This document shows, in pieces, positions 37,024 to 52,565 of a DNA stretch of 64,000 nucleotides (position 1 is the first letter of the stretch; each line of letters opens with the position of its first letter). The position numbers and the translations under genes are program-made. The stretch comes from Escherichia coli (GTDB lineage Bacteria; Pseudomonadota; Gammaproteobacteria; Enterobacterales; Enterobacteriaceae). A model generated the notes under the pieces. That model saw only the letters and a list, made by a program, of their open reading frames with translations, searched no databases and was not told where the DNA came from. The stretch lies in assembly GCF_003019035.1 (NCBI RefSeq), contig NZ_CP027447.1; one strand, written 5' to 3'.

Positions 37024-37273
37024 GAGTAGGCTTCGCTTTGTTGTGTTGTGTGGCAGCTGATTTTTGCGCGCTGCTTCTGTGAACAGTTATTAAGCGGGCT
37101 TTTCGTTTTCGTCTATCTCTTTAGCTACCGGTCAGACCATTTTTTTTCCAGCTCTGTGACCTTGTCTTGGTTAACTTAATGTTAAATTGATGTAACATAA
37201 TCACTTACGTGATGTGCGTGTTTTGCGAGTTAAGAACAGAAAAATTGGTCCTACCTGTGCACGAGGTCCGGGA
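37024..37273. promoter_or_regulatory. Divergent glcD/glcC promoter region
   Basis: 250-bp intergenic region between divergent starts; individual binding sites not resolved. Confidence 0.5.
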
Positions 37274-38038
37274 ATGAAAGATGAACGTCGCCCTATTTGC
37301 GAAGTGGTTGCAGAGAGTATCGAACGGTTAATTATCGACGGCGTACTGAAGGTCGGTCAGCCGCTTCCCTCGGAACGTCGACTGTGTGAAAAGCTCGGCT
37401 TCTCACGCTCCGCACTGCGTGAAGGGCTGACCGTGCTGCGCGGGCGCGGGATTATTGAAACGGCGCAGGGTCGCGATTCTCGTGTCGCACGGCTTAATCG
37501 GGTGCAGGACACCAGCCCGCTGATCCATCTGTTCAGTACGCAGCCGCGAACGCTGTACGATCTGCTCGACGTTCGCGCATTACTGGAGGGCGAATCGGCA
37601 AGGCTGGCGGCAACGCTGGGAACCCAGGCTGATTTTGTTGTGATAACCCGCTGTTATGAAAAAATGCTCGCCGCCAGTGAGAACAACAAAGAGATTTCGC
37701 TGATCGAACATGCGCAGTTGGATCACGCTTTCCATCTCGCCATTTGTCAGGCTTCTCACAATCAGGTGCTGGAGTTTACGCTGCAATCATTGACCGACCT
37801 GATGTTTAATTCGGTGTTTGCCAGCGTAAATAATCTCTACCATCGACCACAGCAAAAAAAGCAGATCGATCGCCAGCATGCGCGGATCTACAACGCGGTG
37901 TTGCAGCGGCTGCCGCACGTCGCCCAGCGCGCAGCACGCGATCATGTGCGGACCGTGAAAAAGAATCTCCACGATATCGAGCTGGAAGGCCACCATTTGA
38001 TTCGCTCGGCGGTGCCGCTGGAGATGAAGCAGGGGTGA
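37274..38038 (+). CDS. glcC: GntR/FadR-family transcriptional activator of the glc operon
   Basis: Start set at MKDERRPICEVVAESIERLI (254 aa); winged-helix N-terminus. Confidence 0.9.
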   Translation: MKDERRPICEVVAESIERLIIDGVLKVGQPLPSERRLCEKLGFSRSALREGLTVLRGRGIIETAQGRDSRVARLNRVQDTSPLIHLFSTQPRTLYDLLDVRALLEGESARLAATLGTQADFVVITRCYEKMLAASENNKEISLIEHAQLDHAFHLAICQASHNQVLEFTLQSLTDLMFNSVFASVNNLYHRPQQKKQIDRQHARIYNAVLQRLPHVAQRAARDHVRTVKKNLHDIELEGHHLIRSAVPLEMKQG

Positions 38039-38044
38039 CTGCCA

Positions 38045-39187
38045 TCAAATCTGCTTTTCATACAATCGGTAACGCTTGTACGGCTCCGCCCCAATGCGTT
38101 CCAGCATGTTATTCATGCCTGTATTGGTTTCGAGGATCCATGACATCTCCAGCGCATCGATCTTCCGGCGGGCAAACGGATCGCGTAAGGCTTCAATCAA
38201 TAACAACGCAATCACCGGGCCGATGCGGCTGAACTGATACTCGTCCCGCACGCCCATCAGCGGTACTCGCGCAGTTCGCACACCGCTGACTTTTAAACGC
38301 CACAGCAATTTTGCCCAGCCGAAGGGAAAGAGCGATCCGTTCAGATCGGCAATCGCCTCGTTGATGTTTGGCAAGCCGACAATAAACGCGCAGGGTGCAG
38401 AATCAATCTCAGCGATGTAGATCATATCGTCCGGCACCAGATATTTAAGTTGGTCGCCCATGGTCGCGAATTCATGTTCGGTAAACGGCACAAATCCCCA
38501 GTTGTGCTGCCAGCCAGAATTGAAAATCTCACGCAGGATCTGCATCTCTTCGGCAAACCGCTGGCGATTGATGCAGCGAATGGTCACCTTCTTACGCACC
38601 TGATCCATCAGTTTTTTTAGCGCCGGAGAGAAAGTGAGATCGGTTCGCTGCATCCACCACGCCAGTAAATCAATGCCTTTGTGATAACCCAATTGTTCAA
38701 TATGCGCGGCATACCACGGTTTACCGTGCGGCATCATCGCACAGGGTGGTGTATCGAAACCTTCAATCAGTAATCCGCTTTCCTGATTGATATTCAGGCT
38801 GAAAGGCCCGCTGATCTTACTTGCACCTTGTGACTTCAACCACGCTTCCGCTGCGCCAAACAACGCGGCAAAAACCTGCGGATCATCAATGGCGTCAATC
38901 ATGCCGAAATGACCGGTATCTTTGCCGTAACGCTCGCGGTGCAAGGTATCTATTTGCGCGGTAATACGCCCAACTATCTGCCCCGCTTTTTTTGCCACCC
39001 ACGCCTGCCAGATGATATGGTCCGTCCCCGGATTTTTCGCAGACAAATGCTCGTTGCGTTCAATGAATAAAGGGGGTATCCAGTTTGGATCGTCGGGATA
39101 AAGTGATGACGGAAAAGCGATAAATGCCTTAAGGTCATTTTTATTAATTACTTTTTCAATTTTAATCATCAGCAGATCGCATTCCAT
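38045..39187 (-). CDS. yghO: YghO-like GNAT-fold N-acyltransferase (uncharacterised); candidate lipid N-acyltransferase
   Basis: 380-aa intact ORF convergent with glcC and divergent from the FAAL operon; symbol assigned by synteny. Confidence 0.7.
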   Translation of the reverse strand: MECDLLMIKIEKVINKNDLKAFIAFPSSLYPDDPNWIPPLFIERNEHLSAKNPGTDHIIWQAWVAKKAGQIVGRITAQIDTLHRERYGKDTGHFGMIDAIDDPQVFAALFGAAEAWLKSQGASKISGPFSLNINQESGLLIEGFDTPPCAMMPHGKPWYAAHIEQLGYHKGIDLLAWWMQRTDLTFSPALKKLMDQVRKKVTIRCINRQRFAEEMQILREIFNSGWQHNWGFVPFTEHEFATMGDQLKYLVPDDMIYIAEIDSAPCAFIVGLPNINEAIADLNGSLFPFGWAKLLWRLKVSGVRTARVPLMGVRDEYQFSRIGPVIALLLIEALRDPFARRKIDALEMSWILETNTGMNNMLERIGAEPYKRYRLYEKQI

Positions 39188-39557
39188 AGTTCTGTGGGTA
39201 ACAAATAATTAACGGTGACAAACAGGTTGCAACAGCAACGAACGGCACCTTAATAATCAACCCAATGAATACAAACGACGAATAAATAGTATTTATTAAT
39301 GATTACGATAAGGTCAGAGACTACACAGAAGCGCCACAATGCCTTTTGTCGATTTAAGGCGACCGGACAAGGCTCCTTCTTAATATATTCATAAATTAAA
39401 TATCATTCACAATAAAAACAAAAAACTCAAATTCATTATTTAAATCAATGTTCATTTTCACACTGATGAAAATACTATCTCATTTATCTTTTATGCCTAT
39501 ATAATCCACCGCATTATTGTCATTTTATTTTTGATATCCAATTTTTTCGTGGTGTAT

Positions 39558-41282
39558 ATGTCTAATAAAATCTTTACGCATTCCCTACCTATGCGCTATG
39601 CCGATTTTCCAACGCTGGTTGATGCTTTGGACTATGCCGCTCTGAGTAGCGCTGGAATGAATTTTTATGACAGACGTTGCCAACTTGAAGATCAACTGGA
39701 ATATCAGACGTTAAAAGCGCGTGCCGAAGCTGGTGCGAAGCGGTTGTTATCGCTGAACCTGAAAAAAGGCGATCGCGTGGCACTGATTGCCGAAACCAGT
39801 AGCGGGTTCGTAGAGGCTTTTTTTGCCTGCCAGTATGCCGGCTTAGTCGCCGTCCCGTTGGCGATTCCCATGGGCGTCGGTCAGCGGGATTCCTGGAGCG
39901 CCAAGCTGCAGGGTTTACTGGCAAGTTGCCAGCCCGCAGCCATTATCACTGGTGATGAGTGGTTGCCACTGGTCAATGCCGCGACGCATAACAACAACCC
40001 CGAATTACATGTTTTAAGCCACGCCTGGTTTAAGGCATTACCGGAAGCCGATGTTGCGCTCCAGCGTCCAGTTCCGAACGATATCGCCTACCTCCAGTAC
40101 ACCTCCGGCAGCACCCGTTTTCCCCGTGGCGTCATTATCACCCATCGCGAAGTGATGGCTAATCTACGTGCTATAAGCCACGATGGCATAAAATTACGCC
40201 CTGGCGACCGCTGCGTCTCCTGGCTGCCTTTCTACCATGATATGGGACTGGTCGGCTTTCTCCTGACCCCCGTCGCCACGCAGCTTTCAGTAGATTATTT
40301 GCGCACTCAGGATTTTGCCATGCGTCCTCTGCAATGGCTTAAATTGATCAGTAAAAATCGCGGCACCGTTTCCGTTGCGCCGCCGTTTGGCTATGAATTG
40401 TGCCAGCGCCGCGTGAATGAAAAAGATCTCGCTGAACTGGATCTTTCCTGCTGGCGCGTCGCTGGTATTGGTGCAGAACCCATCTCCGCAGAACAACTCC
40501 ATCAATTCGCTGAATGTTTCCGTCAGGTCAACTTTGACGATAAAACTTTCATGCCGTGCTACGGACTGGCAGAAAATGCGCTGGCTGTCAGCTTCTCTGA
40601 TGAAGCTTCCGGGGTTGTGGTTAACGAAGTGGATCGCGACATCCTCGAATATCAGGGCAAAGCCGTCGCGCCGGATGCTGAAACACGCGCCGTATCGACT
40701 TTCGTCAACTGCGGTAAAGCGTTGCCGGAACATGGCATTGAAATCCGCAATGAAGCAGGTATACCTGTCGCGGAACGTGTGGTAGGCCATATTTGCATCT
40801 CCGGCCCTAGCCTGATGAGCGGTTACTTTGGCGACCAGATTTCACAAGACGAGATTGCCGCGACGGGCTGGTTAGACACCGGCGACCTCGGTTATCTGCT
40901 GGACGGTTATCTGTATGTCACCGGACGCATTAAAGATCTGATTATTATTCGTGGCCGTAATATCTGGCCGCAGGATATTGAATATATTGCGGAACAGGAA
41001 CCGGAAATTCATTCTGGCGATGCGATTGCTTTTGTTACCGCCCAGGAAAAAATCATTTTGCAGATCCAGTGTCGGATCAGCGATGAAGAACGTCGCGGGC
41101 AGCTTATCCACGCGCTGGCAGCACGGATCCAAAGCGAATTTGGTGTGACCGCGGCTATCGATCTGTTGCCGCCCCACAGTATTCCCCGAACGTCCTCCGG
41201 CAAGCCTGCCCGTGCGGAAGCGAAAAAACGTTATCAGAAGGCTTATGCTGCAAGCCTTCATGTGCAGGAATCCCTGGCATGA
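39558..41282 (+). CDS. Fatty acyl-AMP ligase / acyl-CoA (acyl-ACP) synthetase family protein
   Basis: AMP-binding motifs YTSGSTRFPRGV and GYGLAENA-like YGLAENALAV; start uncertain (TTG 39531, ATG 39558 or ATG 39591). Confidence 0.8.
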   Translation: MSNKIFTHSLPMRYADFPTLVDALDYAALSSAGMNFYDRRCQLEDQLEYQTLKARAEAGAKRLLSLNLKKGDRVALIAETSSGFVEAFFACQYAGLVAVPLAIPMGVGQRDSWSAKLQGLLASCQPAAIITGDEWLPLVNAATHNNNPELHVLSHAWFKALPEADVALQRPVPNDIAYLQYTSGSTRFPRGVIITHREVMANLRAISHDGIKLRPGDRCVSWLPFYHDMGLVGFLLTPVATQLSVDYLRTQDFAMRPLQWLKLISKNRGTVSVAPPFGYELCQRRVNEKDLAELDLSCWRVAGIGAEPISAEQLHQFAECFRQVNFDDKTFMPCYGLAENALAVSFSDEASGVVVNEVDRDILEYQGKAVAPDAETRAVSTFVNCGKALPEHGIEIRNEAGIPVAERVVGHICISGPSLMSGYFGDQISQDEIAATGWLDTGDLGYLLDGYLYVTGRIKDLIIIRGRNIWPQDIEYIAEQEPEIHSGDAIAFVTAQEKIILQIQCRISDEERRGQLIHALAARIQSEFGVTAAIDLLPPHSIPRTSSGKPARAEAKKRYQKAYAASLHVQESLA

Positions 41283-42193
41283 ATCAAACTGTCGCGGTGA
41301 CGGGCGCTACCGGGTTTATCGGTAAATATATTATCGATAACCTGCTCGCCCGCGGCTTTCACGTTCGCGCATTGACGCGTACTGCCCGTGCTCACGTCAA
41401 TGACAATCTCATCTGGGTGCGCGGTTCTCTGGAAGATACTCATTCACTTAGCGAACTGGTTGCCGGAGCCAGCGTGGTGGTCCATTGCGCCGGGCAAGTG
41501 CGCGGGCACAAAGAAGAGATTTTTACCCGCTGTAACGTTGACGGCAGCCTGCGACTGATGCAAGCGGCAAAAGAGAGCGGCTTTTGCCAACGTTTTCTGT
41601 TTATCTCTTCGCTGGCGGCGCGCCATCCCGAACTCTCCTGGTACGCAAATTCCAAACACGTCGCCGAACAACGGCTGACTGCAATGGCTGATGAAATTAC
41701 GCTGGGCGTTTTTCGCCCGACAGCCGTGTATGGTCCCGGCGATAAAGAGTTAAAACCGCTGTTTGACTGGATGCTGCGCGGCCTGCTGCCACGACTTGGT
41801 GCGCCAGATACACAACTCTCTTTCCTGCACGTCACCGATTTTGCGCAAGCAGTGGGTCAGTGGTTAAGCGCCGAAACTGTACAGACGCAAACCTATGAAT
41901 TATGCGATGGCGTCGCTGGCGGCTATGACTGGCAACGCGTACGACAGCTTGCCGCCGAAGCCCGTTGTGGTTCTGTGCAGATGGTTGGCATTCCTCTGCC
42001 GGTACTCACCTGCCTTGCGGATATCAGTACTGCGTTGAGTCGCCTGGCAGGTAAAGAACCTATGCTGACCCGCTCGAAAATTCGTGAATTAACCCACGCC
42101 GACTGGTCGGCAAATAATAACCGTATTTCTGAAGATATTAATTGGTTTCCCGGGATTAGCCTGGAACACGCATTACGCAACGGGCTATTTTGA
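41279..42193 (+). CDS. NAD(P)-dependent epimerase/dehydratase-family SDR (candidate keto-reductase)
   Basis: VTGATGFIGKYI Rossmann motif, YANSK catalytic YxxxK; ATGA start/stop overlap with upstream gene. Confidence 0.85.
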   Translation: MNQTVAVTGATGFIGKYIIDNLLARGFHVRALTRTARAHVNDNLIWVRGSLEDTHSLSELVAGASVVVHCAGQVRGHKEEIFTRCNVDGSLRLMQAAKESGFCQRFLFISSLAARHPELSWYANSKHVAEQRLTAMADEITLGVFRPTAVYGPGDKELKPLFDWMLRGLLPRLGAPDTQLSFLHVTDFAQAVGQWLSAETVQTQTYELCDGVAGGYDWQRVRQLAAEARCGSVQMVGIPLPVLTCLADISTALSRLAGKEPMLTRSKIRELTHADWSANNNRISEDINWFPGISLEHALRNGLF

Positions 42194-42224
42194 TTGTCTT
42201 GTTTAAAGGTGTGTTAACGTTTCT

Positions 42225-42473
42225 ATGGTAAATCGTGAAATAGTAATGGATTACATCCTTTCCTGTTTACAGGATTTGGTCGAAAACGGTGTGGAAATTA
42301 AGCCCAACAGCGATCTCGTCAACGATCTTGGCCTGGAGTCGATCAAAGTGATGGATCTCTTAATGATGCTGGAAGACAGATTCGATATTTCCATTCCTAT
42401 TAATATTCTGCTGGATGTCAAAACCCCTGTGCAATTAATGGAAACTCTACTTCCATGGCTGGAGAATAAATAA
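42225..42473 (+). CDS. Acyl carrier protein
   Basis: 82 aa; phosphopantetheine attachment motif DLGLESI; acidic helical protein. Confidence 0.85.
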   Translation: MVNREIVMDYILSCLQDLVENGVEIKPNSDLVNDLGLESIKVMDLLMMLEDRFDISIPINILLDVKTPVQLMETLLPWLENK

Positions 42474-43645
42474 TGGGGCTATACGATAAATATGCGCGCC
42501 TTGCTGGCGAGCGACTGCAATTTAGTGACAACGGGTTAACGCCGTTTGGTACCTGTATTGATGAAGTGTATTCCGCCACCGAAGGTCGGATCGGCAATAA
42601 AAAAGTGATTCTGGCCGGGACCAATAATTATCTCGGTTTAACCTTTAATCATGATGCCATCGCCGAAGGTCAGGCAGCGTTAGCGGCCCAAGGCACCGGC
42701 ACCACCGGTTCTCGTATGGCTAATGGCAGTTATGCGCCGCATCTGGCGTTAGAGAAAGAGATTGCCGAGTTTTTCAATCGCCCTACCGCTATCGTTTTTT
42801 CAACCGGTTATACCGCTAATTTAGGCGTCATCAGCGCACTTGCCGACCATAACGCCGTGGTGTTACTGGATGCCGACAGCCACGCCAGTATTTATGACGC
42901 CTGTTCTCTCGGTGGCGCGGAAATTATTCGTTTCCGCCATAACGATGCTAAAGATCTGGAACGGCGCATGGTTCGCCTCGGTGAACGGGCGAAAGAGGCG
43001 ATTATCATCGTTGAGGGCATCTACAGCATGCTCGGTGACGTTGCGCCGTTAGCGGAAATTGTTGATATCAAACGTCGTCTCGGTGGTTATTTGATTGTCG
43101 ATGAAGCGCATTCGTTTGGCGTGTTAGGCGCAACGGGGCGCGGACTGGCTGAAGCCGTTGGCGTTGAAGATGATGTGGATATTATCGTTGGTACTTTCAG
43201 TAAAAGTCTGGCCTCGATTGGCGGTTTTGCTGTCGGTTCGGAAGCGATGGAAGTGTTGCGCTACGGCAGCCGCCCGTATATTTTTACCGCCTCTCCTTCT
43301 CCGTCCTGCATTGCGACCGTGCGCTCGTCGTTAAGAACCATTGCCTCACAACCAGAGCTGCGGCAAAAGCTGATGGATAACGCCAACCATCTGTATGACG
43401 GTCTGCAAAAACTGGGTTATGAGTTAAGTTCACATATTAGCCCGGTAGTGCCGGTAATAATCGGTTCGAAAGAGGACGGTTTACGCATCTGGCGCGAGCT
43501 TATTTCGCTGGGCGTTTATGTGAATCTTATCCTGCCACCTGCCGCGCCTGCAGGCATCACTCTGCTGCGCTGTAGCGTAAACGCTGCCCACAGTCATGAG
43601 CAAATCGATGCCATCATTCAGGCATTTGCTACTCTGAAGCAGTAA
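42473..43645 (+). CDS. Alpha-oxoamine synthase (PLP-dependent; serine palmitoyltransferase / KBL / BioF family)
   Basis: 390 aa; GTNNYLGL, DEAHSFGVLG, GTFSKSLASIGG (PLP lysine); TAATG overlap with ACP gene. Confidence 0.85.
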   Translation: MGLYDKYARLAGERLQFSDNGLTPFGTCIDEVYSATEGRIGNKKVILAGTNNYLGLTFNHDAIAEGQAALAAQGTGTTGSRMANGSYAPHLALEKEIAEFFNRPTAIVFSTGYTANLGVISALADHNAVVLLDADSHASIYDACSLGGAEIIRFRHNDAKDLERRMVRLGERAKEAIIIVEGIYSMLGDVAPLAEIVDIKRRLGGYLIVDEAHSFGVLGATGRGLAEAVGVEDDVDIIVGTFSKSLASIGGFAVGSEAMEVLRYGSRPYIFTASPSPSCIATVRSSLRTIASQPELRQKLMDNANHLYDGLQKLGYELSSHISPVVPVIIGSKEDGLRIWRELISLGVYVNLILPPAAPAGITLLRCSVNAAHSHEQIDAIIQAFATLKQ

Positions 43646-43651
43646 TGTGAG

Positions 43652-43684
43652 CCCGCCGTGGTGTTGCGCCACGGCGGGTTTAAT
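43652..43684 (+). terminator. Rho-independent terminator of the FAAL-SDR-ACP-AOS operon at the convergent junction
   Basis: CCCGCCGTGG-TGTTGCG-CCACGGCGGG followed by TTTAAT; coordinates approximate. Confidence 0.55.
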
Positions 43685-44759
43685 GTTGTCTGTCATACCA
43701 ATACACCAGGCTCAACGCCATCAGGACAAACGCTACCGGTAAACCGAGCGCGGTAACAGGTGCACTCAACGCAAATAGCAACCCCAGATTGACCATGATT
43801 TGATAGCTGATCCAGGTGAGTAAGCCAACGATGACGCCTACAGCGAGACGGCTACCCATCCCTGGCGAGCGCGGGGCGCTAAAGGTGAACGGCACAGCCA
43901 GCAAAATCATCGCCAGGGTCAGGATCGGTTGCCCCAGTTTTTCCCACAGTGCAAGGCGGTATTCGCTGCTGGGTTGTCCGGTTTCCTGCAAATAATGGAT
44001 GTAATGATTAAGCTGACGGACAGAAAAAGTATTCCCCGGCATCGATAACTCTTCAAGATCCATACTGGTGAAGGCCGATTGCCAGGCAAGATTATCTGAT
44101 GTTTCCAGCGTTTCTTTGCCATTCAACCATTTTTTATGATTCACACCATGCAGGATCCACGTTTTGTCGTCTTCAATGGAGGCACTGCGTGCAAAAATGT
44201 AGGATTCGAGCGAGAGATCGTCGCGATAATGAAATATCTCCACGCCCACAGGCTGGCCCTGCTCGTTCAGCGATTTCACCGTCACAAATTCATTACCGCG
44301 CCTGGCCCAAAGCATATTGCCGGTAATGTCATCGTCCTCCCCCAACGCGGTGGCAGTCGATTTGATTTGCAGCGCCTGTTGCTGCAATGGCGACGCCACC
44401 CACTCATCTATCGCGCCTAACGAAACAGTCCACAATATCCCGGCAACCAGCGCCACCAGTGCAATACGGAAGATAGAAAACCCAGTGCTGCGAATGGCGG
44501 TAAGCTCACTGTTTTTCGATAACTGCCCCAGGCCAACAATCCCTCCCAATAATGCGATAAATGGCGAAAGTTCGACCAGTGTACGCGGTAAGGTCATCAG
44601 CACCACCAGCACCGCCTGAGTCCAGCGATAACCGCCCGGGCTGACATCATCCAGTTCGTTAATCAGGTTGAAGGTGGTAAAAAGCGGCAGCAATAGCCCT
44701 GCGGCGGCGGCAAAACCGAGAAAGAGATGACGGATTAAATAGCGACTGAAAACATTCAT
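43680..44759 (-). CDS. LptG-like permease (YjgP/YjgQ family)
   Basis: Six-TM architecture with large periplasmic domain; start set at MNVFSRYLIRHLF, overlapping the upstream stop (ATGA). Confidence 0.8.
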   Translation of the reverse strand: MNVFSRYLIRHLFLGFAAAAGLLLPLFTTFNLINELDDVSPGGYRWTQAVLVVLMTLPRTLVELSPFIALLGGIVGLGQLSKNSELTAIRSTGFSIFRIALVALVAGILWTVSLGAIDEWVASPLQQQALQIKSTATALGEDDDITGNMLWARRGNEFVTVKSLNEQGQPVGVEIFHYRDDLSLESYIFARSASIEDDKTWILHGVNHKKWLNGKETLETSDNLAWQSAFTSMDLEELSMPGNTFSVRQLNHYIHYLQETGQPSSEYRLALWEKLGQPILTLAMILLAVPFTFSAPRSPGMGSRLAVGVIVGLLTWISYQIMVNLGLLFALSAPVTALGLPVAFVLMALSLVYWYDRQH

Positions 44760-45826
44760 CGGGAAAATTTCTGCAGCAAAGAGAAGTCGCGTGCGACCAG
44801 CATCAGCAGGCCCATTAGCATGAGTCCGGGTACTAACCACAAACCAGGAATGAGGGGAATCGCACCGTTAGCCACCAGCGTACGGCAGACGTCGCCGCCA
44901 TAAAAAATGGCAACAAACAGCAACGTCAGTGGCAATAACGTTGAAAATCGCCCTTGCCGCGGTTTTACCCGACTTAATGAAATGGCCAGCAGCGCCATCA
45001 ACAATGCGGTCAGGCCACGGCTTTGTCGCCATTGCAGTTCGGCATGATCGGCTGGAAAGACGGAGCGCGCCAGCTCCGTGACCGATTTTGCTTTGCGTTT
45101 GACGTTAGGGCTTTGATCCAGCTGATTCAGATGTAATTGCAGATTACGGTAGATCTGTTCGTTGTCGTCACGCCCCTGATGATCGAGAAGATAGGCGGTC
45201 CCGTTATGCAACATAACGGTCGGTTTCTCAGGTGATGGGTCAACCACATCAACCGAACGGGCGCGGAAAATGCGGGTTCGATTGGCAGTAGAAGTATAAA
45301 TCAGCGCGTCAGTCAGGCGATTATTATCCTGATCAACCGTCTGCGAAAGGATCATTCGTCCGTTATCGTTAGTGTTAAATTTCTTTGCCCGCAACTGGCG
45401 AACATCCAGCTCCGACTGCGACTGTTGCTCCAGTTGATAAATCTGCGCATAAGCCCACGGCCGACCATACATCGACAGAAGGGTGACAAAAATACTTAGC
45501 GGTATCGCCAGATAAAGAACGGCTTTGTACAAGCGTCCCGGACTGCCCCCCGCCGCAGAGATAGCGGTAATTTCCGAGTCGGTATACATCTGCCCTAGCG
45601 TCACGCCAACTGACACATACAGACCAACAGGTAACAACATCTCCAGTGCAATCAGCACTTTGTAGAAAACGATATCCAGCACAACATCAAGAGCTAAGGT
45701 CCCATTTGCCGCTTCGGTCAGATAACGCTGTGCGGAGTAGCTGGCGAAAATAAAGATCAGAAAACCGACGATAATCAGCACCAGACGGCGCGTACCACGC
45801 ATGATGTAGTGTTCAACCAGCTTCAT
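44756..45826 (-). CDS. LptF-like permease (YjgP/YjgQ family)
   Basis: 356 aa, same architecture, translationally coupled to the LptG-like gene. Confidence 0.8.
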   Translation of the reverse strand: MKLVEHYIMRGTRRLVLIIVGFLIFIFASYSAQRYLTEAANGTLALDVVLDIVFYKVLIALEMLLPVGLYVSVGVTLGQMYTDSEITAISAAGGSPGRLYKAVLYLAIPLSIFVTLLSMYGRPWAYAQIYQLEQQSQSELDVRQLRAKKFNTNDNGRMILSQTVDQDNNRLTDALIYTSTANRTRIFRARSVDVVDPSPEKPTVMLHNGTAYLLDHQGRDDNEQIYRNLQLHLNQLDQSPNVKRKAKSVTELARSVFPADHAELQWRQSRGLTALLMALLAISLSRVKPRQGRFSTLLPLTLLFVAIFYGGDVCRTLVANGAIPLIPGLWLVPGLMLMGLLMLVARDFSLLQKFSR

Positions 45827-45856
45827 CTCACTAACACCCTCAATCCTTTGAATTTT

Positions 45857-46420
45857 TTATTCATTGATCAGTTTCTGCGCCAGCGCAATGACATGATCTA
45901 CCTCTTCCGGCGTCAGGCTGCCGTCCTTTGCCCACTGAATTTGCCCGTCTTTATTCAGCACCAGAATGGTTGAACTCTGCTCCGGCAACCGCCAGGCAAC
46001 GCGTCCCAGTCCATTGCCGTCAATAACGAATTGCGCCCACGGATAGCGGCGTTTATTTTTTTCGATTTTGCCAACGACAAAATAGCCAGTACCGAAGATG
46101 GCATCATCGGTGTTCACAATGGTGGTGGGCTGAAAACGATCCTGCGGAAAGTTTGCCGCTTCAACCGCTTTAATTAACAGTGAGTTCTTTTTCTTCGCCG
46201 ACTTACGCCCGGCGATATACTGAATAATGCGGACTTTTCCCGCCAGCTGTGTGCTGTTCCACTTTTGGTAGTGAATTTCGTCGTCGCTATTCAGAAGCAG
46301 CTCGCCGCCTTCCTGGATATAAACGGGGGTAACCGTTTTGCCAGTGACGAAATTGTGTGCCTGCACACCCTGGGCTAAGAGCATGATAATCAGCGCAATA
46401 ATCAAACGAGATGACATCAT
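45857..46420 (-). CDS. Periplasmic YtfJ-like protein
   Basis: 187 aa with signal peptide MMSSRLIIALIIMLLAQGVQA; family assignment tentative. Confidence 0.6.
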   Translation of the reverse strand: MMSSRLIIALIIMLLAQGVQAHNFVTGKTVTPVYIQEGGELLLNSDDEIHYQKWNSTQLAGKVRIIQYIAGRKSAKKKNSLLIKAVEAANFPQDRFQPTTIVNTDDAIFGTGYFVVGKIEKNKRRYPWAQFVIDGNGLGRVAWRLPEQSSTILVLNKDGQIQWAKDGSLTPEEVDHVIALAQKLINE

Positions 46421-46428
46421 TGCTCCGG

Positions 46429-47253
46429 TTATAGCGGAAAACGCGAAATCAGCAGCTCTAAGCGCTGGCGAATATCGCTATCCAGCGCCACCGGTGCATC
46501 ATACGACTGGCGGTTTTCCATATCATCCGCCACCATGTCGTCGTGTTTATCCCCCATCAGGCCATTAATGGCGGCGAGGAAGCGGGAAATCTGTAACGCC
46601 TCTTTATTTTCAGGATCAAGCGATCTTAAGGTGTCGTAATAAGAAACCTGCTGGCTGATGATTTTTCGCACATCATGAAATTCCCTGCCGGTGAGTCGCG
46701 GTTTGGCAATTATCTCTTTCAGGGTATGCATTTGCTTTTGCCGATAGGCAATAAAACCGCTTACGCTTTCTAACTGGCTATGGCGTAATGAATAGTTCAC
46801 CAACGACCAGACCGGAGAGCTTAAATAAACCCGTAACAGGTTGCCGTAATACGACACAATATTTTTCTTACCGTTACGAAAACCGTCCTGAAAACGCCCC
46901 AAAAAAACGGTCGTTTTGCCGAATAAAAATCCGGCCTGATGCTTCTTTAAATACAGCCGTTGCGCAAAACGCAGGTGCTTGTAGCGCGCTCGCATGTATT
47001 TATACTTTTTGCGCTCATCGTCGGTAAGTATTTTGCCTTTTGCTTGTTTCAGCGTTAAGCGAAGTAACTCTTTGCGATTTACACCATCCAGCCAGAATCT
47101 CAAACATAAGGCATAATTGTCATGAATAATCTCCGGTGAACAGCGCAAAGTGATCGTTGGCGGCAAGCTAACCTGTGTGTCAATAACATCATTATCATCA
47201 ACAGCAATAAATAAACGCTCAATGACCTCAAGTGGAAAGTATTTTCTCATCAT
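46429..47253 (-). CDS. Hypothetical basic protein of unknown function
   Basis: 274-aa ORF in operon context, Lys/Arg-rich, no recognisable motif. Confidence 0.6.
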   Translation of the reverse strand: MMRKYFPLEVIERLFIAVDDNDVIDTQVSLPPTITLRCSPEIIHDNYALCLRFWLDGVNRKELLRLTLKQAKGKILTDDERKKYKYMRARYKHLRFAQRLYLKKHQAGFLFGKTTVFLGRFQDGFRNGKKNIVSYYGNLLRVYLSSPVWSLVNYSLRHSQLESVSGFIAYRQKQMHTLKEIIAKPRLTGREFHDVRKIISQQVSYYDTLRSLDPENKEALQISRFLAAINGLMGDKHDDMVADDMENRQSYDAPVALDSDIRQRLELLISRFPL

Positions 47254-48602
47254 TGGAATTTTTCTCCGACTCCGTTATAGACCAATAAATGGCGACGGAG
47301 AAAAGTCCTTAATGTCGGTGCTAACGACAGGATCACATCCAGACATTGACCACCGAAATAAGCAAATGCAGCCCCCATTACGCCAAACAGATGACAAAAC
47401 ATAAACAACAAAATAACGTAAGCTAACGATGCAATAGTTTGTGCTATCAAAAAAGCGCGCTGTTTTCCCGCCATCAATAGCAATGACTCCTGAGGGAAGC
47501 CCAGCATCGAGATCACAATTGCGCCCAGCATCACCTGAATCAGGTCATACGCTTCGAGATACTTAACGCCAAACACCAGCGAAATAAGCGGCTTGCCGAC
47601 GATCAACACCGCGAGCGCCACCAGAATTCCGATTCCGCCCGCCAGTAAACCTGACTTCACGCCTAACAACCACGGTCTGGTGGTGCGCGGATCTAAACGC
47701 ATCACCTCTGGGTAAAAACTTTTGCCCAGTAAACCCGCTGGCGTTCCGGCGGCGTCGAAGAATGTCATGGCGATTTTAAATAACCCGGCGGCAGCGGGTC
47801 CTAACACGATCCCCACCAGCACTGTGCTGCACGAGTTACGCGCCGACCAGATGGAGTGGGCAATGTTGGTTGACCAGACAAAACTCCACGCGCCTTTGAT
47901 GTGTCGGGCAGACTCAAACAGATTCAATTTGAACGCGTTATGGATATTTCTGCGGCGTAATTCGCGCGCGGCAAACCACCAGTACATGGTGCCGCCAACC
48001 AGATTCGACACGTACCAGGCAATAACAAAGCCCGCAAAACCAAAGTCAAAATACCAGGCTACGACGCTCCCCGCTGCGCGCAGAAAAGGTTTCGTCGCTT
48101 GCTGTACAGCAATTAGATCGAAGCGATCTACCGCACGCAGAATGCCGGTCGGCGTGGAGGAAGCCATTGAAGGAATGAGCGTGCAATACAGCGCTGCCAG
48201 CCAAAAGCTTTGGTCATCCAGACCTAATGAATGGGAAAGAAAAGGGAGTAAGGCAATGCCGCCGACAATCGCCACCGCGCCGCTGACGATATCCAGCGAG
48301 AAGGAAAATGAGACGACATTGCGGAATTGCTGCGGATTATTGTTGGTTAATGCTGGTGTTCCGTACTGAACCACCAGCTGCCATGTCTGAAACTTAATAA
48401 AATCGCTGATCGACTTGGCGTACGATTGTACAATCACCAGTACGCCAAACATGGCGGGCGTCATCCCTTTACCGGCACACGAGAGCGCCAACAGACCCAG
48501 TAAAGCGCTCACGACATTACTGGAGCCTAACCAGGCGCTATTGCGAATAATGGTGCGAAACGCGCCATCTGCAAACCAATGTTTGATGTTAAAACCCGCC
48601 AA
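47250..48602 (-). CDS. yghQ: MOP/PST-family polysaccharide or lipid flippase (Wzx-like)
   Basis: 450-aa polytopic ORF; synteny upstream of yghR. Confidence 0.8.
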   Translation of the reverse strand: MAGFNIKHWFADGAFRTIIRNSAWLGSSNVVSALLGLLALSCAGKGMTPAMFGVLVIVQSYAKSISDFIKFQTWQLVVQYGTPALTNNNPQQFRNVVSFSFSLDIVSGAVAIVGGIALLPFLSHSLGLDDQSFWLAALYCTLIPSMASSTPTGILRAVDRFDLIAVQQATKPFLRAAGSVVAWYFDFGFAGFVIAWYVSNLVGGTMYWWFAARELRRRNIHNAFKLNLFESARHIKGAWSFVWSTNIAHSIWSARNSCSTVLVGIVLGPAAAGLFKIAMTFFDAAGTPAGLLGKSFYPEVMRLDPRTTRPWLLGVKSGLLAGGIGILVALAVLIVGKPLISLVFGVKYLEAYDLIQVMLGAIVISMLGFPQESLLLMAGKQRAFLIAQTIASLAYVILLFMFCHLFGVMGAAFAYFGGQCLDVILSLAPTLRTFLRRHLLVYNGVGEKFQ

Positions 48603-48647
48603 TTCAGCCTGACCTTATCGTTGATAGTAAAAAGTATCCCGCCAGCC

Positions 48648-49406
48648 TTAAGTTAAACTTCGGCGGTCAGAAACGATGGCAACCAGAGAAACCGCCTTCT
48701 GTGCCTGTTCCAGCACTTCGCTGTAAGGCGCTCTGGAATCAATCTCAAGAATTTTTGTGCCGTTATAGCCAATCGTCGACATGACGCCGATTTTGTCCTG
48801 CAGCTCGGCATAGTCATGGTCAGGCTTGCGGGAGATGGCAGTATCAATATCAATCCCCAAACGAATGATTAATTCAGGACGGTATTGCGCCATTTGTTGG
48901 TATAAACGCCGTTCGCGCTGCGCCAGAAACATGCTGATTTTCCCGGTCGCACGTTCGACGCCGATCCCCGGTCCGTCATAATAAAAGCCCGAAATTTCAG
49001 CCTGCGGGAAGCGATCGCTGACCACCAGAACGCCACTTTGCGCCAGTCGCTGAACCTTGCGTAGATTCGCCATTCTTCGCAGCGAGAAGCAGTACATAAT
49101 CACCGCCGCCCATACCGCCGGAGATTTGGTTTTCATGCTTTGGGTTTTCGAGGATTTGGCCGCCAGTCGCCGTTCGAGCCAGACGCCAACCAACGGCAAT
49201 CGTTTGATTTTGTCGCCGTCTTCGCCCGAGAGCAGCCCCAGATAGCGCCGCTCGGTTTGCCAGTGTTGTTGCAGCGATTTCACGAGGTCGGTGGTCAGTG
49301 TGGATTTACCGGTGCCATCACACCCGACCACCGCAATCAGCCCCGGAATGTAGTTGGGCTGCGGCGCGGTTGTACTATTAACAGTTTGTGTTTGTAGTGC
49401 GTCCAT
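48648..49406 (-). CDS. yghR: P-loop NMP-kinase-fold protein (putative small-molecule or lipid kinase)
   Basis: Walker A GCDGTGKSTL near N-terminus, DRFP motif; paralog of yghS and yghT. Confidence 0.8.
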   Translation of the reverse strand: MDALQTQTVNSTTAPQPNYIPGLIAVVGCDGTGKSTLTTDLVKSLQQHWQTERRYLGLLSGEDGDKIKRLPLVGVWLERRLAAKSSKTQSMKTKSPAVWAAVIMYCFSLRRMANLRKVQRLAQSGVLVVSDRFPQAEISGFYYDGPGIGVERATGKISMFLAQRERRLYQQMAQYRPELIIRLGIDIDTAISRKPDHDYAELQDKIGVMSTIGYNGTKILEIDSRAPYSEVLEQAQKAVSLVAIVSDRRSLT

Positions 49407-49437
49407 TCGTTAAATCATCCCCTATCCATTTTGGTGA

Positions 49438-50151
49438 TCAGGAAAGCGCAGCGTGAATTGCGCGTAGTGACGCTTGCAGAATTTCATCGGCTGGTTGCCG
49501 ACCATCCAGTTCAAGGATCTTTGCGCCATTGAATGTCAGTTGCGGCGTAACGGCGATTTTTTCCTGTAACGCTGCCAGTTGGTGGTCAGGTTTACGCGCA
49601 AACGCGGTTTGTTCATCAATGCCAAGACGAATCAACAATACGGGCAAATAAGACGCCATCCATTGGTACAGCTTCAGCTCGCGCTGCCTTAACATTTTTA
49701 TCCAACCGTTACCGCCCGTGGTTTTTGCCAATTGCGGGCCATCAAAGCGAAAACCCGGCACTTCAACCTGCGGGTAGCGGTCGGTGATGAGCAGATAGCC
49801 TTGCTGGCTTTTACACAACATTTTGCGAAACTTGTACGCCCGCCAGCAGGAAAGCAGATAGATAACCAGCGCAGTAATATTGCCAGGCGGTGTGGAGGGC
49901 TTTTCGTGCACATGTGCCGCTTTACTTCGCAGATAACGCCCAAAAGGTGCGCCAATAACAGGGAGCTGTGAAATCCATTCGCCAATTCGCCCGGACGATT
50001 GCCCGAGATAAATGTGTTCTGTTGGCATTGTTGCTGCCAGTTCATTTACCAGGCTTGCCGTGAGGGTCGATTTACCTGAACCATCACATCCTACAATGGC
50101 AATAACACGCACTGGCGTGGAATTAATTATTGACATATTACGTTGATTCAC
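49438..50151 (-). CDS. yghS: P-loop NMP-kinase-fold protein, paralog of yghR
   Basis: Walker A GCDGSGKSTL, DRYP motif. Confidence 0.8.
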   Translation of the reverse strand: MNQRNMSIINSTPVRVIAIVGCDGSGKSTLTASLVNELAATMPTEHIYLGQSSGRIGEWISQLPVIGAPFGRYLRSKAAHVHEKPSTPPGNITALVIYLLSCWRAYKFRKMLCKSQQGYLLITDRYPQVEVPGFRFDGPQLAKTTGGNGWIKMLRQRELKLYQWMASYLPVLLIRLGIDEQTAFARKPDHQLAALQEKIAVTPQLTFNGAKILELDGRQPADEILQASLRAIHAALS

Positions 50152-50324
50152 GAAAAACCCGGCAGCAAATAATGTATTGAATATTACGTGGTCCGTGCTC
50201 AGAATATCCGTTCAACCTTATTGTGACAATGGTTAATTGTGACATTGACCTGAATTACGCTTTCATAAAAACATATTAACCAAATAAATATTTTTAATGG
50301 ATATTTAAATTAAAGGATATATTC

Positions 50325-51017
50325 ATGCAGTCAATAACACCTCCATTAATTGCCGTTATTGGTAGCGATGGTTCAGGCAAGTCAACGGTGTGTGAACATC
50401 TCATTACCGTTGTCGAAAAATATGGTGCTGCCGAAAGAGTTCATTTAGGAAAACAGGCCGGAAATGTCGGTCGTGCAGTGACAAAATTACCGTTGATGGG
50501 AAAATCCTTACATAAAACAATTGAACGAAATCAGGTGAAAACAGCAAAAAAATTGCCAGGACCAGTTCCGGCGCTGGTAATTACAGCGTTTGTCGCCCGT
50601 CGCTTACTGCGCTTTCGTCATATGCTTGCCTGTCGTCGTCGCGGGTTAATTGTTCTAACCGACCGTTATCCTCAGGACCAAATTCCTGGCGCTTACGATG
50701 GTACAGTGTTCCCACCTAACATTGAAGGTGGTCGTTTTGTCTCATGGCTGGCAAGCTAGGAACGTAAAGCGTTTCACTGGATGGCGAGCCATAAACCGGA
50801 TCTGGTCATCAAACTCAATGTTGACCTTGAAGTTGCCTGCGCGCGTAAACCCGACCATAAACGGGAATCGCTGGCGAGGAAGATTGCCATAACGCCACAG
50901 TTAACCTTTGGCGGTGCACAACTGGTTGATATCGATGCTAATCAGCCACTGGAAAAGGTGCTGATTGATGCAGAAAAAGCGATTACGGATTTTATGACCG
51001 CGCGTGGTTATCACTAG
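50325..51017 (+). pseudogene. yghT: yghT-like P-loop paralog interrupted by an in-frame TAG
   Basis: ORFs 50325-50759 and 50781-51017 are in the same frame, separated only by TAG at 50757-50759; joined they give a 230-codon yghR/yghS paralog ([13 protein letters not shown]). Confidence 0.75.
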
Positions 51018-51027
51018 TCAAAAATGG

Positions 51028-51058
51028 AAATGCCCGATCGCCAGGACCGGGCATTTTC
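51028..51058. terminator. Bidirectional terminator hairpin between yghT and pitB
   Basis: AAATGCCCG...CGGGCATTT stem with T-rich flanks on both strands; coordinates approximate. Confidence 0.5.
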
Positions 51059-51065
51059 AGGAAGG

Positions 51066-52565
51066 TTAAATCAACTGCAATGCTATCCAGTACAACCCAC
51101 CAGAAAGAAAAATCGCCGCCGGTAAAGTAAACACCCACGCCATCAGGATGCTGGTTACCGTTTTACGCTGTAACCCACCGCCGTCCACCACCATCGTCCC
51201 TGCTACCGCAGACGAGAGGACGTGTGTTGTGGAGACGGGCATCCCAATATAACTGGCAAGGCCGATAGACACTGCCGCCGTCATTTGTGCCGCCATGCCT
51301 TGCGCATACGTCATGCCGCGCTTACCAATCTTCTCACCGATGGTCATCGCTACACGACGCCAGCCAATCATGGTGCCGATGCCGAGCGCCAGTGCTACCG
51401 CCATGATGATCCACACCGGTGCGTACTCAATGGTGCTTAACATATCGCTGCGCAGTTTTTTCAGCAGGTTCTGGTCTTCTTTACTGACGCCTGGCAGTTT
51501 CGCCAGCTTCGCGGAGGTATCAGAGATGCACAGCATAATGCGGCGCAGCTGGCTGCGCTGACTCACGCTTAACGGCTCGTAACTTTCCATATTGCCTGGC
51601 AGCATCGTTTTAACGCGCGCAATCGCATCAAAGGTATTTGCCGGATGACAGTGAAACTCTGTTACTTGCGTGCCATCAGTCGATGTCGCAGGCAATGGAG
51701 GTTCCATCGTAATCAACTTCTGCGGCAGTTCAGGATGCTGTTGCAGGTAGTGTTCGAAGTTGGTGACGGCATCGCGGGTACGGGTAATTTCATAGCCGGA
51801 CGCGTTCATATTGACGACGAAGCCAGCAGGGGCAATCCCCACCAGTACCAGCATCACCAGGCCGATCCCTTTCTGCCCGTCGTTCGCGCCGTGCGAAAAC
51901 GCCACGCCCGCAGCGGAAACAATCAGCGCAATACGCGTCCAGAATGGCGGCTTACGTTTGCCTTTTTTCTTTTTGCGATCTTCCGGAATGCGGTGAATAC
52001 GGTCACGCTTTTTCGTCCCGCTCCAGAAACGGCGCAGCAGGAAAATCAGACCACCCGCAATGACCAGGCCGACGATAGGGGAAACAATCAGCGAGGAGAA
52101 AATTTTGGTCACTTCACGCAGGTTTAACGCATCCATCACCGATGAGCCGGTTAACAGCGCGTTGGTTAAACCGATGCCGATAATCGCACCAATCAAGGTA
52201 TGCGAACTGGAGGCCGGTAAACCAAAGAACCACGTTCCCAGGTTCCAGATAATCGCCGCCAGCAGCATGGAAAAGACCATCGCCAGGCCGTGAGTTGACC
52301 CCATATTCAGCAACAAATCGGTTGGCAACATATGGACAATGGCATAGGCAACGCTAAGTCCGCCTAGCAATACGCCAAAAAAGTTAAAAAATGCCGCCAT
52401 CACCACAGCAAGTTGTGGTTGCATGGCACGAGTATAAATAACGGTTGCCACCGCATTCGCCGTGTCATGAAAACCATTGATTGCTTCGTAGAACAACACA
52501 AATGCCAGAGCAAGTAATAACAAAAGCCCTGTGTATATATCAAGGCCAACAAATAAATTTAGCAT
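51066..52565 (-). CDS. pitB: Low-affinity inorganic phosphate transporter
   Basis: 499-aa PiT-family protein; synteny. Confidence 0.9.

Follow-up and report, generated by a model that had tools for sequence, protein, structure and literature searches.

A compact minus-strand operon of seven genes on the Escherichia coli chromosome is probably the maturation and export half of a sphingolipid locus. It fills positions 43680-50151 of the window, as we call the whole 64,000-nucleotide stretch of contig NZ_CP027447.1 (assembly GCF_003019035.1) that was analysed, and lies in the glc-yghO-pitB-gss-hyb region. The 'lipid-synthesis operon' next door encodes the ceramide pathway of E. coli (yghO, aasR, cerR, acpR and spt). 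The seven genes form two units: a widely distributed core (the kinases, YghQ and a CHAD-like protein) and an Enterobacterales add-on (a YtfJ-family protein, LptF2 and LptG2). That a second LptF/LptG pair exports a neighbouring lipid via LptB has already been published for Caulobacter, in work that also draws the locus of E. coli UTI89. New here are the definition of the kinase-flippase-CHAD core, which is tied to sphingolipid-producing Proteobacteria, the CHAD fold of one of its proteins and the altered substrate cavity of LptF2/LptG2. The genes of the operon are as follows:

yghS, 49438-50151, minus strand: thymidylate-kinase-fold P-loop protein, the operon's first gene
yghR, 48648-49406, minus strand: thymidylate-kinase-fold P-loop protein
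yghQ, 47250-48602, minus strand: MOP-superfamily (Wzx-like) flippase
Gene of the 274-residue CHAD-fold protein, 46429-47253, minus strand: divergent CHAD fold
Gene of the YtfJ-family protein, 45857-46420, minus strand: start placed one codon later in RefSeq (45857-46417)
lptF2 (LptF-like), 44756-45826, minus strand: LptF-family permease paralogue
lptG2 (LptG-like), 43680-44759, minus strand: LptG-family permease paralogue, predicted subunit of a sphingolipid extractor

These open reading frames are tightly packed, with junctions of 31, 45, -4, 8, 30 and -4 bp from yghS down to lptG2. The two overlaps, yghQ with the CHAD-like gene and lptF2 with lptG2, are of the ATGA type and were both read directly in the sequence. 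An earlier model-made note on this DNA (the sequence-only reading) had described just such an operon, and the list of open reading frames, the RefSeq annotation and the junctions agree with it, coordinates included. RefSeq starts lptG2 at the ATG at 44759; the list also allows an upstream GTG at 44840. The same reading had seen no ABC ATPase gene, and none is annotated in the 30 kb examined around the operon.

What is the lipid made next door? The neighbour that the sequence-only reading had called 'AOS' is spt, hence the neighbouring product is (dihydro)ceramide. In BL21, AasR (ECD_02851), AcpR and Spt (ECD_02854) together make 3-oxo-sphinganine, and AcpR bears 4'-phosphopantetheine (Padilla-Gomez et al. 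2022, PMC9386255). These authors put forward ECD_02852 as the reductase candidate and yghO (ECD_02850), a homologue of CC_1154, as the N-acyltransferase candidate, and found all five dihydroceramide genes clustered in Caulobacter and E. coli only. The BL21 pathway and the name spt thus make the lipid in question a sphingolipid. The synthesis genes, of which yghO had been overlooked, are:

yghO, 38045-39187, minus strand: ceramide synthase homologue (N-acyltransferase 'aca'/bCerS), from RefSeq
aasR, 39558-41282, plus strand: specialised acyl-ACP synthetase (annotated as fatty acyl-AMP ligase)
cerR/epi, 41279-42193, plus strand: NAD-dependent epimerase/dehydratase-family reductase, predicted keto-reductase of the ceramide pathway
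acpR, 42225-42473, plus strand: specialised acyl carrier protein, from RefSeq
spt, 42473-43645, plus strand: serine palmitoyltransferase, RefSeq gene name spt

How firmly is the operon tied to these genes? The whole 11.8-kb cluster is present in 4056 of 5426 E. coli genomes, with at least 80% of its length kept and almost always at 95% identity or more. Separate parts of it occur in 4067, 4105 and 4151 of the same genomes, and since these counts nearly equal that of the whole, both halves are inherited together within E. coli. Beyond the species, a synteny scan in which an alignment of the CHAD-like protein was run against one genome per species yielded 77 loci, which were compared by a tblastn matrix and by gene order. 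The operon is linked to the lipid-synthesis genes in more than 15 Enterobacterales genera, in Rhodanobacteraceae and in Carnimonas, so the co-occurrence that the sequence-only reading had proposed to look for is there. The full 13-gene set is found in Escherichia, Pseudocitrobacter, Hafnia, Sodalis, Pantoea, Serratia, Erwinia, Citrobacter, Pluralibacter, Klebsiella indica, Cedecea, Rosenbergiella and Shimwellia; in Mangrovibacter yghO lies outside the 10-kb flank. Across Enterobacterales the full set is kept, although the relative arrangement of its two halves has changed. The linkage of the permeases to spt is retained in 44 to 46 loci, and yghO stays with the cluster in 42.

Outside Enterobacterales the gene order takes another form. 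In Luteibacter, Rhodanobacter and Dyella the genes run yghS-yghR-aasR-cerR-acpR-spt-yghQ-CHAD on one strand, with no LptF2/LptG2 or YtfJ gene nearby. The core by itself (two kinases, YghQ and the CHAD-like protein) is found in Novosphingobium, Sphingomonas, Altericroceibacterium, Zymomonas, Gluconobacter and Bombella. Commensalibacter has two kinases and the CHAD-like protein, and YghQ was not detected in its locus. These core-only genera fall mostly in groups known for spt (PMC9386255). Two metagenomic loci repeat the core, one with an adjacent DAGK_cat lipid kinase and the other with an internal histidine phosphatase. The sequence-only reading had proposed a single export and head-group modification module dedicated to the neighbouring lipid. 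Its tie to that lipid stands, given the linkage to the synthesis genes and the co-inheritance; its unity does not, as synteny splits the module in two.

Judged by their sequences, LptF2 and LptG2 are full-length members of the LptF/LptG family (Pfam PF03739). LptF2 scores 319.5 bits against TIGR04407 (cut-off 230; model positions 2-346 of 347) and LptG2 305.1 bits against TIGR04408 (cut-off 240; positions 2-349 of 351). They are 25.5% identical to K-12 LptF and 27.6% to K-12 LptG, respectively, and about equally far from the solved Pseudomonas, Vibrio and enterobacterial proteins. This low and even distance marks them as old paralogues and not recent duplicates. Which ATPase could drive them? 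In the housekeeping transporter, LptF E84 and LptG E88 are the coupling-helix glutamates that dock on LptB. A glutamate stands at the first position in 45 of 45 LptF2 orthologues and at the second in 46 of 47 LptG2 orthologues (E85 in the LptG2 of the window), and the SE(I/L)T motif of the coupling helix is kept.

The residues that contact lipopolysaccharide (LPS) tell a different part of the story. Their roles follow the Shigella structure with bound LPS (PMC6744409). Positive charge persists, wholly or in part, at four phosphate-binding positions: LptF R33, LptG K62 (Arg) and LptG R136 (Lys), in the group that binds the lipid A 1'-phosphate, and LptF K317 (a 4'-phosphate contact in that structure, now Arg). 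The sequence-only reading had held that a pair with every LPS contact in place would speak against a dedicated exporter, and seven contacts are in fact lost among the orthologues. In LptG, K34 becomes N, D or T, K40 D or E, K41 D, R133 L or Q and D37 N; in LptF, K322 becomes N and Q248 A or S. The lost positions contact LPS phosphates (the 4'-phosphate), glucosamine and the inner core (PMC6744409). In the window, LptG2 has N, D, D and L in place of K34, K40, K41 and R133, and LptF2 keeps E84 and R33, has Arg for K317 and replaces the core-contacting K322 and Q248 by N and A. The cavity stays hydrophobic. Such a pattern would fit a smaller anionic lipid that has neither a second phosphate nor core sugars. 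Compared with the housekeeping LptB2FGC of E. coli, the pair has the same families, length and domain layout, the same coupling motif and a similarly hydrophobic cavity. It differs in being non-essential and strain-variable, in lying in a ceramide cluster and not beside pepA, where the single lptFG pair of K-12 is found, and in the seven replaced contacts, two of them replaced by acidic residues. The RefSeq name 'LPS export ABC transporter permease' is probably over-annotated.

Work on Caulobacter crescentus offers experimental precedent for such a pair. A 2024 study in PLoS Pathogens named CC_1156/CC_1155 LptF2/LptG2 and CC_1166 a candidate flippase (PMC11324152). Uchendu, Isom and Klein then reported that lptF2/lptG2 can be deleted only in the absence of spt or of the ceramide kinase gene cpgB, and that the two proteins form a complex and co-purify with the single LptB; their Figure 2B shows the UTI89 locus with homologous genes coloured alike (April 2026, bioRxiv 10.64898/2026.04.12.717747). 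In both species a second pair (CCNA_01214/CCNA_01213 in Caulobacter) sits inside a sphingolipid locus that holds no LptB gene, together with a MOP-type candidate flippase (CC_1166 there, YghQ here), and the coupling-helix glutamates of the E. coli pair are compatible with the LptB binding shown in Caulobacter. The sequence-only reading had left a choice between borrowed housekeeping LptB and a non-canonical energiser; the kept glutamates and the Caulobacter co-purification favour the former. The two loci differ in that E. coli lacks LptC2 and has a YtfJ-family periplasmic protein, which is lacking in the Caulobacter cluster. Head groups are handled by CpgABC, CC_1152, CC_1153 and CC_1158 in Caulobacter and, in E. 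coli, would fall to YghR, YghS, YghT and the CHAD-fold protein. We considered whether the E. coli head-group genes are homologues of CpgA, CpgC, CC_1152, CC_1153 or CC_1158, and none of those domain types occurs in the operon.

The kinases of the core are three paralogues with 34-42% pairwise identity (42% between YghR and YghS). The third, overlooked by the sequence-only reading, is divergent from yghS, a position kept in the Enterobacterales, Rhodanobacteraceae and Carnimonas loci examined:

yghT, 50325-51017, plus strand: third kinase paralogue

In the window a C to T change at 50757 turns CAG into a premature TAG (50757-50759) and cuts the 230-residue protein after residue 144; the yghT of SCU-301 is intact. 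All three proteins have the thymidylate-kinase fold with a Walker A P-loop of the form GxDGxGK(S/T)T, a DR(Y/F/H) motif and a basic lid, and no ABC signature motif. The P-loop Lys, DR(F/Y)PQ with its Arg and the RKPDH lid are intact in each of them (GCDGTGKST, DRFPQ and RKPDH in YghR). Against the dTMP-kinase model TIGR00041 they score 30.9 (YghR), 24.8 (YghS) and 25.5 bits (YghT), all below the cut-off of 83.25, and the RefSeq name 'dTMP kinase' given to YghS and YghT is probably over-annotated. Do they resemble known lipid kinases? The analogy with LpxK drawn by the sequence-only reading is a weak one, as the fold is thymidylate-kinase-like. Homology to the ceramide kinase CpgB (CCNA_01218) was considered and rejected. 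CpgB is likewise a soluble cytoplasmic kinase in a sphingolipid locus, where it takes the first head-group step, but its DAGK/LCB5 catalytic domain with GGDG (PMC10331486) is a different fold. Relatives of the E. coli proteins are numerous (2167 representatives at E of 0.001 or less). Some are fused to MOP flippases (P0336, P0388) or adjoin them, and one fusion is to a GT4 glycosyltransferase. P0336 has a weak NTP_transf_5 match between its flippase and kinase domains, and in two fused relatives of about 500 residues that were checked no family was found for the N-terminal domain. A literature search on yghQ, yghR, yghS, ZMO1443, Swit_2493 and CCNA_01224 found nothing functional.

Lipid kinases of known type also lie near the cluster. 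A DgkA-like (DAGK_prokar) paralogue is found beside it in Serratia, Sodalis, Rosenbergiella, Carnimonas and part of the Erwinia and Pantoea loci; in a Sphingomonas metagenome-assembled genome and in a metagenome contig, the neighbour of the core is a DAGK_cat kinase accompanied by a PMT_2 glycosyltransferase (L003:2279-2644, L005:12404-12730 and 14 further loci). These are candidate ceramide kinases distinct from YghR, YghS and YghT.

The basic 274-residue protein is assigned here, from its fold, to the CHAD proteins. It is cytoplasmic, all alpha-helical and translationally coupled to yghQ, and its fold shows the helical layout of CHAD proteins, including conserved histidines and basic residues. 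The Pfam CHAD model (PF05235) matches neither the protein nor any of 19 aligned orthologues, and identity to known CHAD domains is 9-18%. Those domains (Ricinus communis 6QV5, Streptomyces PptA 6RN5, Chlorobium 3E0S) are polyphosphate-binding modules; the E. coli gene differs in being coupled to a MOP flippase and not to a triphosphate tunnel enzyme or polyphosphate kinase. Within Escherichia, conservation in the cluster is lowest for the CHAD-like protein (91%, compared with 92-99% for most), with YtfJ the next lowest (86-91%). Across E. coli the segment 46429-50151 shows two identity classes, 2449 genomes at 90-95% and 2194 at 95-99%, and identity in the lptF2/lptG2 segment is 95% or more in almost every genome. 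The variation of the CHAD-like gene suggests divergent alleles or recombination. Extra copies of the gene exist as well: stand-alone second copies in Pluralibacter (L028, L034), a second copy with a single kinase gene in Carnimonas (L063) and a tandem duplicate in Luteibacter (L052, about 10007 and 10960).

YghQ is predicted to be a sphingolipid flippase of the inner membrane; where a locus has both genes, yghQ almost always directly precedes the CHAD-like gene. YghQ has at least seven hydrophobic segments and matches NF007773 over residues 18-438 (E 3e-9, far under the equivalog cut-off), which places it in MOP at the superfamily level only. Its Serratia orthologue matches Pfam Polysacc_synt/Polysacc_synt_3. 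The RefSeq name 'lipopolysaccharide biosynthesis protein' is probably over-annotated. The YtfJ-family protein, a paralogue of housekeeping ytfJ, scores 216 bits against TIGR01626 (PF09695; cut-off 151.1), has a signal-like hydrophobic N-terminus (residues 1-19) and contains no cysteine. Among the loci examined it is confined to Enterobacterales clusters. A search by sequence found no solved structure for the family, and the literature on YtfJ gave no function.

How could these parts work together? We infer the biochemical steps in E. coli from which genes are present, their folds and motifs and their synteny. Experimental evidence stands behind two stages only: the first, with direct data from E. 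coli, and the last, with support from a related system. AasR, CerR, AcpR and Spt, with the predicted N-acyltransferase YghO, would carry synthesis to (dihydro)ceramide at the inner membrane's cytoplasmic face. The soluble, basic YghS and YghR, and YghT where intact, would then use ATP to add one or more phosphates to the ceramide-derived head group or a precursor, probably working as a hetero-oligomer; that YghR and YghS phosphorylate a lipid is again something we infer. The CHAD-fold protein may bind the anionic, phosphate-rich group by its conserved basic and histidine surface and either pass the lipid to YghQ or regulate it, and YghQ would flip the lipid to the periplasmic leaflet. There, the LptF2/LptG2 heterodimer could dock on housekeeping LptB via the coupling-helix glutamates, extract the anionic sphingolipid and send it through the beta-jellyroll domains and the Lpt bridge to the outer membrane, with the periplasmic YtfJ paralogue as a putative accessory factor at the extraction step.

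Several observations weigh against this scheme. The cluster can be dispensed with and tends to decay: it is missing from about 25% of complete E. coli genomes, K-12 carries an IS5 and has lost the stretch from aasR into yghQ, further independent partial deletions occur (H26, H29), and yghT is broken in the window. The residue comparison of the permeases rests on an alignment at 25-28% identity that is gap-free in the first transmembrane segment of LptG only, and homology between the Caulobacter and UTI89 pairs is as given in the figure legend of the preprint. The LptFG pair adjacent to the Carnimonas cluster is 27% identical to LptF2/LptG2 and 31% to housekeeping LptFG, and no LptF2/LptG2 was found within 10 kb in the Rhodanobacteraceae or alphaproteobacterial loci; therefore the pair is not an obligatory partner of the core. 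Distant kinase relatives form tandem pairs beside flippases or glycosyltransferases in polysaccharide clusters of the Wzx/Wzy type, where sphingolipid genes are absent, so the kinases may act on a substrate other than ceramide. DgkA-like or DAGK_cat lipid kinases accompany the cluster or module in at least 17 loci, which, together with the fold of CpgB, suggests that YghR, YghS and YghT are not the primary ceramide kinase. Finally, the literature searched held no report of an E. coli sphingolipid. Is the E. coli cluster then a silent, decaying remnant without current function, whatever its role elsewhere? The missing and truncated copies, the nonsense mutation in yghT and the silence of the literature would all follow from that. 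The cluster is nevertheless conserved in the genome counts given above, every gene of the locus but yghT keeps a full-length reading frame in the window, the gene set is kept at 50-98% protein identity over more than 15 genera, a sign of purifying selection, and the BL21 enzymes are active when expressed (PMC9386255). We consider a remnant decidedly unlikely.

What else could the genes be doing? An unlikely but interesting alternative starts from PPK3 of Sulfolobus acidocaldarius, reported in 2026, a heteromer of two paralogous dTMP-kinase-like proteins (Saci_2019/Saci_2020) encoded in an operon with a CHAD protein (Saci_2021; PMC12995831). YghS, YghR, YghT and the CHAD-fold protein would be an analogous module that forms phosphoanhydrides or uses polyphosphate: a lipid kinase of known type (housekeeping DgkA or a cluster-linked DgkA/DAGK_cat) would first make ceramide-1-phosphate, the thymidylate-kinase-like enzymes would lengthen its phosphate into a pyro- or oligophosphate or use polyphosphate as phosphate donor, and the chain would be held by the CHAD-like protein until YghQ flips the lipid. 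In favour of this, the tandem dTMP-kinase-fold paralogues, two or three in number, are always accompanied by the CHAD-fold gene, thymidylate kinases phosphorylate a phosphate acceptor, and CHAD domains bind polyphosphate (PMC6537752). The known lipid kinases stand alongside the module and so have not been replaced by it, a histidine-phosphatase gene (SixA/PhoE superfamily, His_Phos_1) lies inside one divergent copy, and the second-best structural match of YghS is 2plr (same sequence as 5h70), a Sulfolobus tokodaii homologue of the PPK3 catalytic subunit. In sequence, however, the kinase family shows no preference for that homologue (E 1.4e-4) over ordinary thymidylate kinases (E about 1e-8), and all three paralogues keep their catalytic motifs, whereas PPK3 has one catalytic and one regulatory subunit. 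The annotation shows no ppx or sixA in the E. coli locus, the genes sit in a lipid-synthesis and flippase cluster, and the CHAD assignment, made by fold, has no Pfam match behind it. Lipids bearing oligophosphate head groups of this sort are not known. The resemblance to PPK3 is a lead and not a result. Slightly less probable again is its fuller form, in which a PPK3-like kinase recruited to lipid synthesis makes a previously unrecognised class of highly anionic pyro- or oligophosphosphingolipids that an LptB-LptF2-LptG2 extractor takes to the outer membrane in Enterobacterales. The RefSeq names imply instead a glycan- or LPS-related pathway, with YghQ as a Wzx flippase for undecaprenyl-linked sugars, LptF2/LptG2 as a variant LPS extractor and ceramide adjacency as coincidence. 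The scores of LptF2 and LptG2 above the curated equivalog cut-offs, the MOP/Wzx superfamily of YghQ and the Wzx/Wzy clusters and glycosyltransferase fusions of the distant kinase relatives are in line with this, but we find it quite improbable: no glycosyltransferase, Wzy or sugar-nucleotide gene is annotated in the E. coli locus, the core-sugar and 4'-phosphate contacts are lost, and the linkage to spt outlasts rearrangement across several bacterial orders, with the genes interleaved with those for ceramide in Rhodanobacteraceae. The remaining possibility, that YghR/YghS form a non-canonical ATPase that energises LptF2/LptG2 instead of LptB, takes up the lack of an ABC ATPase gene and the presence of P-loop proteins in the same operon. 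It is very hard to credit, given the thymidylate-kinase fold without an ABC signature motif, the retained docking glutamates, the LptB binding of the Caulobacter pair and the fact that Rhodanobacteraceae, Sphingomonadales, Zymomonas and Acetobacteraceae keep the kinases, YghQ and the CHAD-like protein together with no LptF2/LptG2 nearby.

Why does a maturation and export operon for sphingolipids matter in E. coli? Some three quarters of the sequenced strains have a complete ceramide pathway and this operon, among them uropathogens, commensals and BL21, and K-12 is without them; an entire class of lipids, with the route of its transport, may therefore be missing from envelope biology based on K-12. 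Should LptF2/LptG2 use housekeeping LptB, they would compete with LPS export for the ATPase and would interact with any drug aimed at LptB2FG. The head-group chemistry and the inner-membrane flipping step, both named as open questions in the Caulobacter work, are best sought in the core, whose range reaches from Enterobacterales to Sphingomonadales and Acetobacteraceae.

The remaining features of the region can be given briefly. The window differs from SCU-301 by three single-nucleotide changes over about 30 kb (35233, 50757, 51549), and its open reading frames agree with the SCU-301 RefSeq annotation. The stop codons of spt and lptG2 face each other across a 34-bp gap that contains a hairpin, found in a terminator scan and by direct reading, which is likely a shared terminator for both convergent operons:

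G+C-rich hairpin of 16 bp, 43648-43682, between the spt stop and the lptG2 stop

A promoter scan did not rise above chance (7 sites, with 9.6 expected), no Rfam family was found at 37000-52000, and a reading as anti-phage defence was dropped, PADLOC having returned just weak P-loop noise. In the E. coli genome collection, a plasmid record is listed with one copy of the cluster, and the H26 variant retains only the stretch from the CHAD-like gene to yghT. pitB (51066-52565 in the window) adjoins yghT in Escherichia, Pseudocitrobacter, Hafnia and Citrobacter (L011, L013-L016, L025, L037, L061) and not in Serratia or Pantoea; this adjacency may reflect inherited gene order rather than a functional link.

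Other neighbours vary with the lineage. In Rhodanobacteraceae a gene for an LpxO-like Asp/Arg beta-hydroxylase lies between yghR and aasR, and one is also found beside the Carnimonas cluster (L052, L056, L059, L060 and L062 at about 3500; L005:11596-12339; L028); the enzyme probably hydroxylates an acyl chain of the sphingolipid. Downstream of lptG2, Serratia marcescens has a phospholipase-like gene (DUF8093) and two ankyrin-repeat genes that are absent in E. coli (L003:16813-19991). In Zymomonas mobilis (L079, 5757-18380) the four-gene core stands directly beside rsmA-pdxA-surA-lptD and pepA and thus adjoins the outer-membrane end of the Lpt machinery. In Novosphingobium sp. Leaf2 (L064, 4912-7025) a PmrA/PmrB-like two-component system is divergent from the four-gene core, a pairing that may be regulatory since enterobacterial PmrAB controls the modification of lipid A phosphates.

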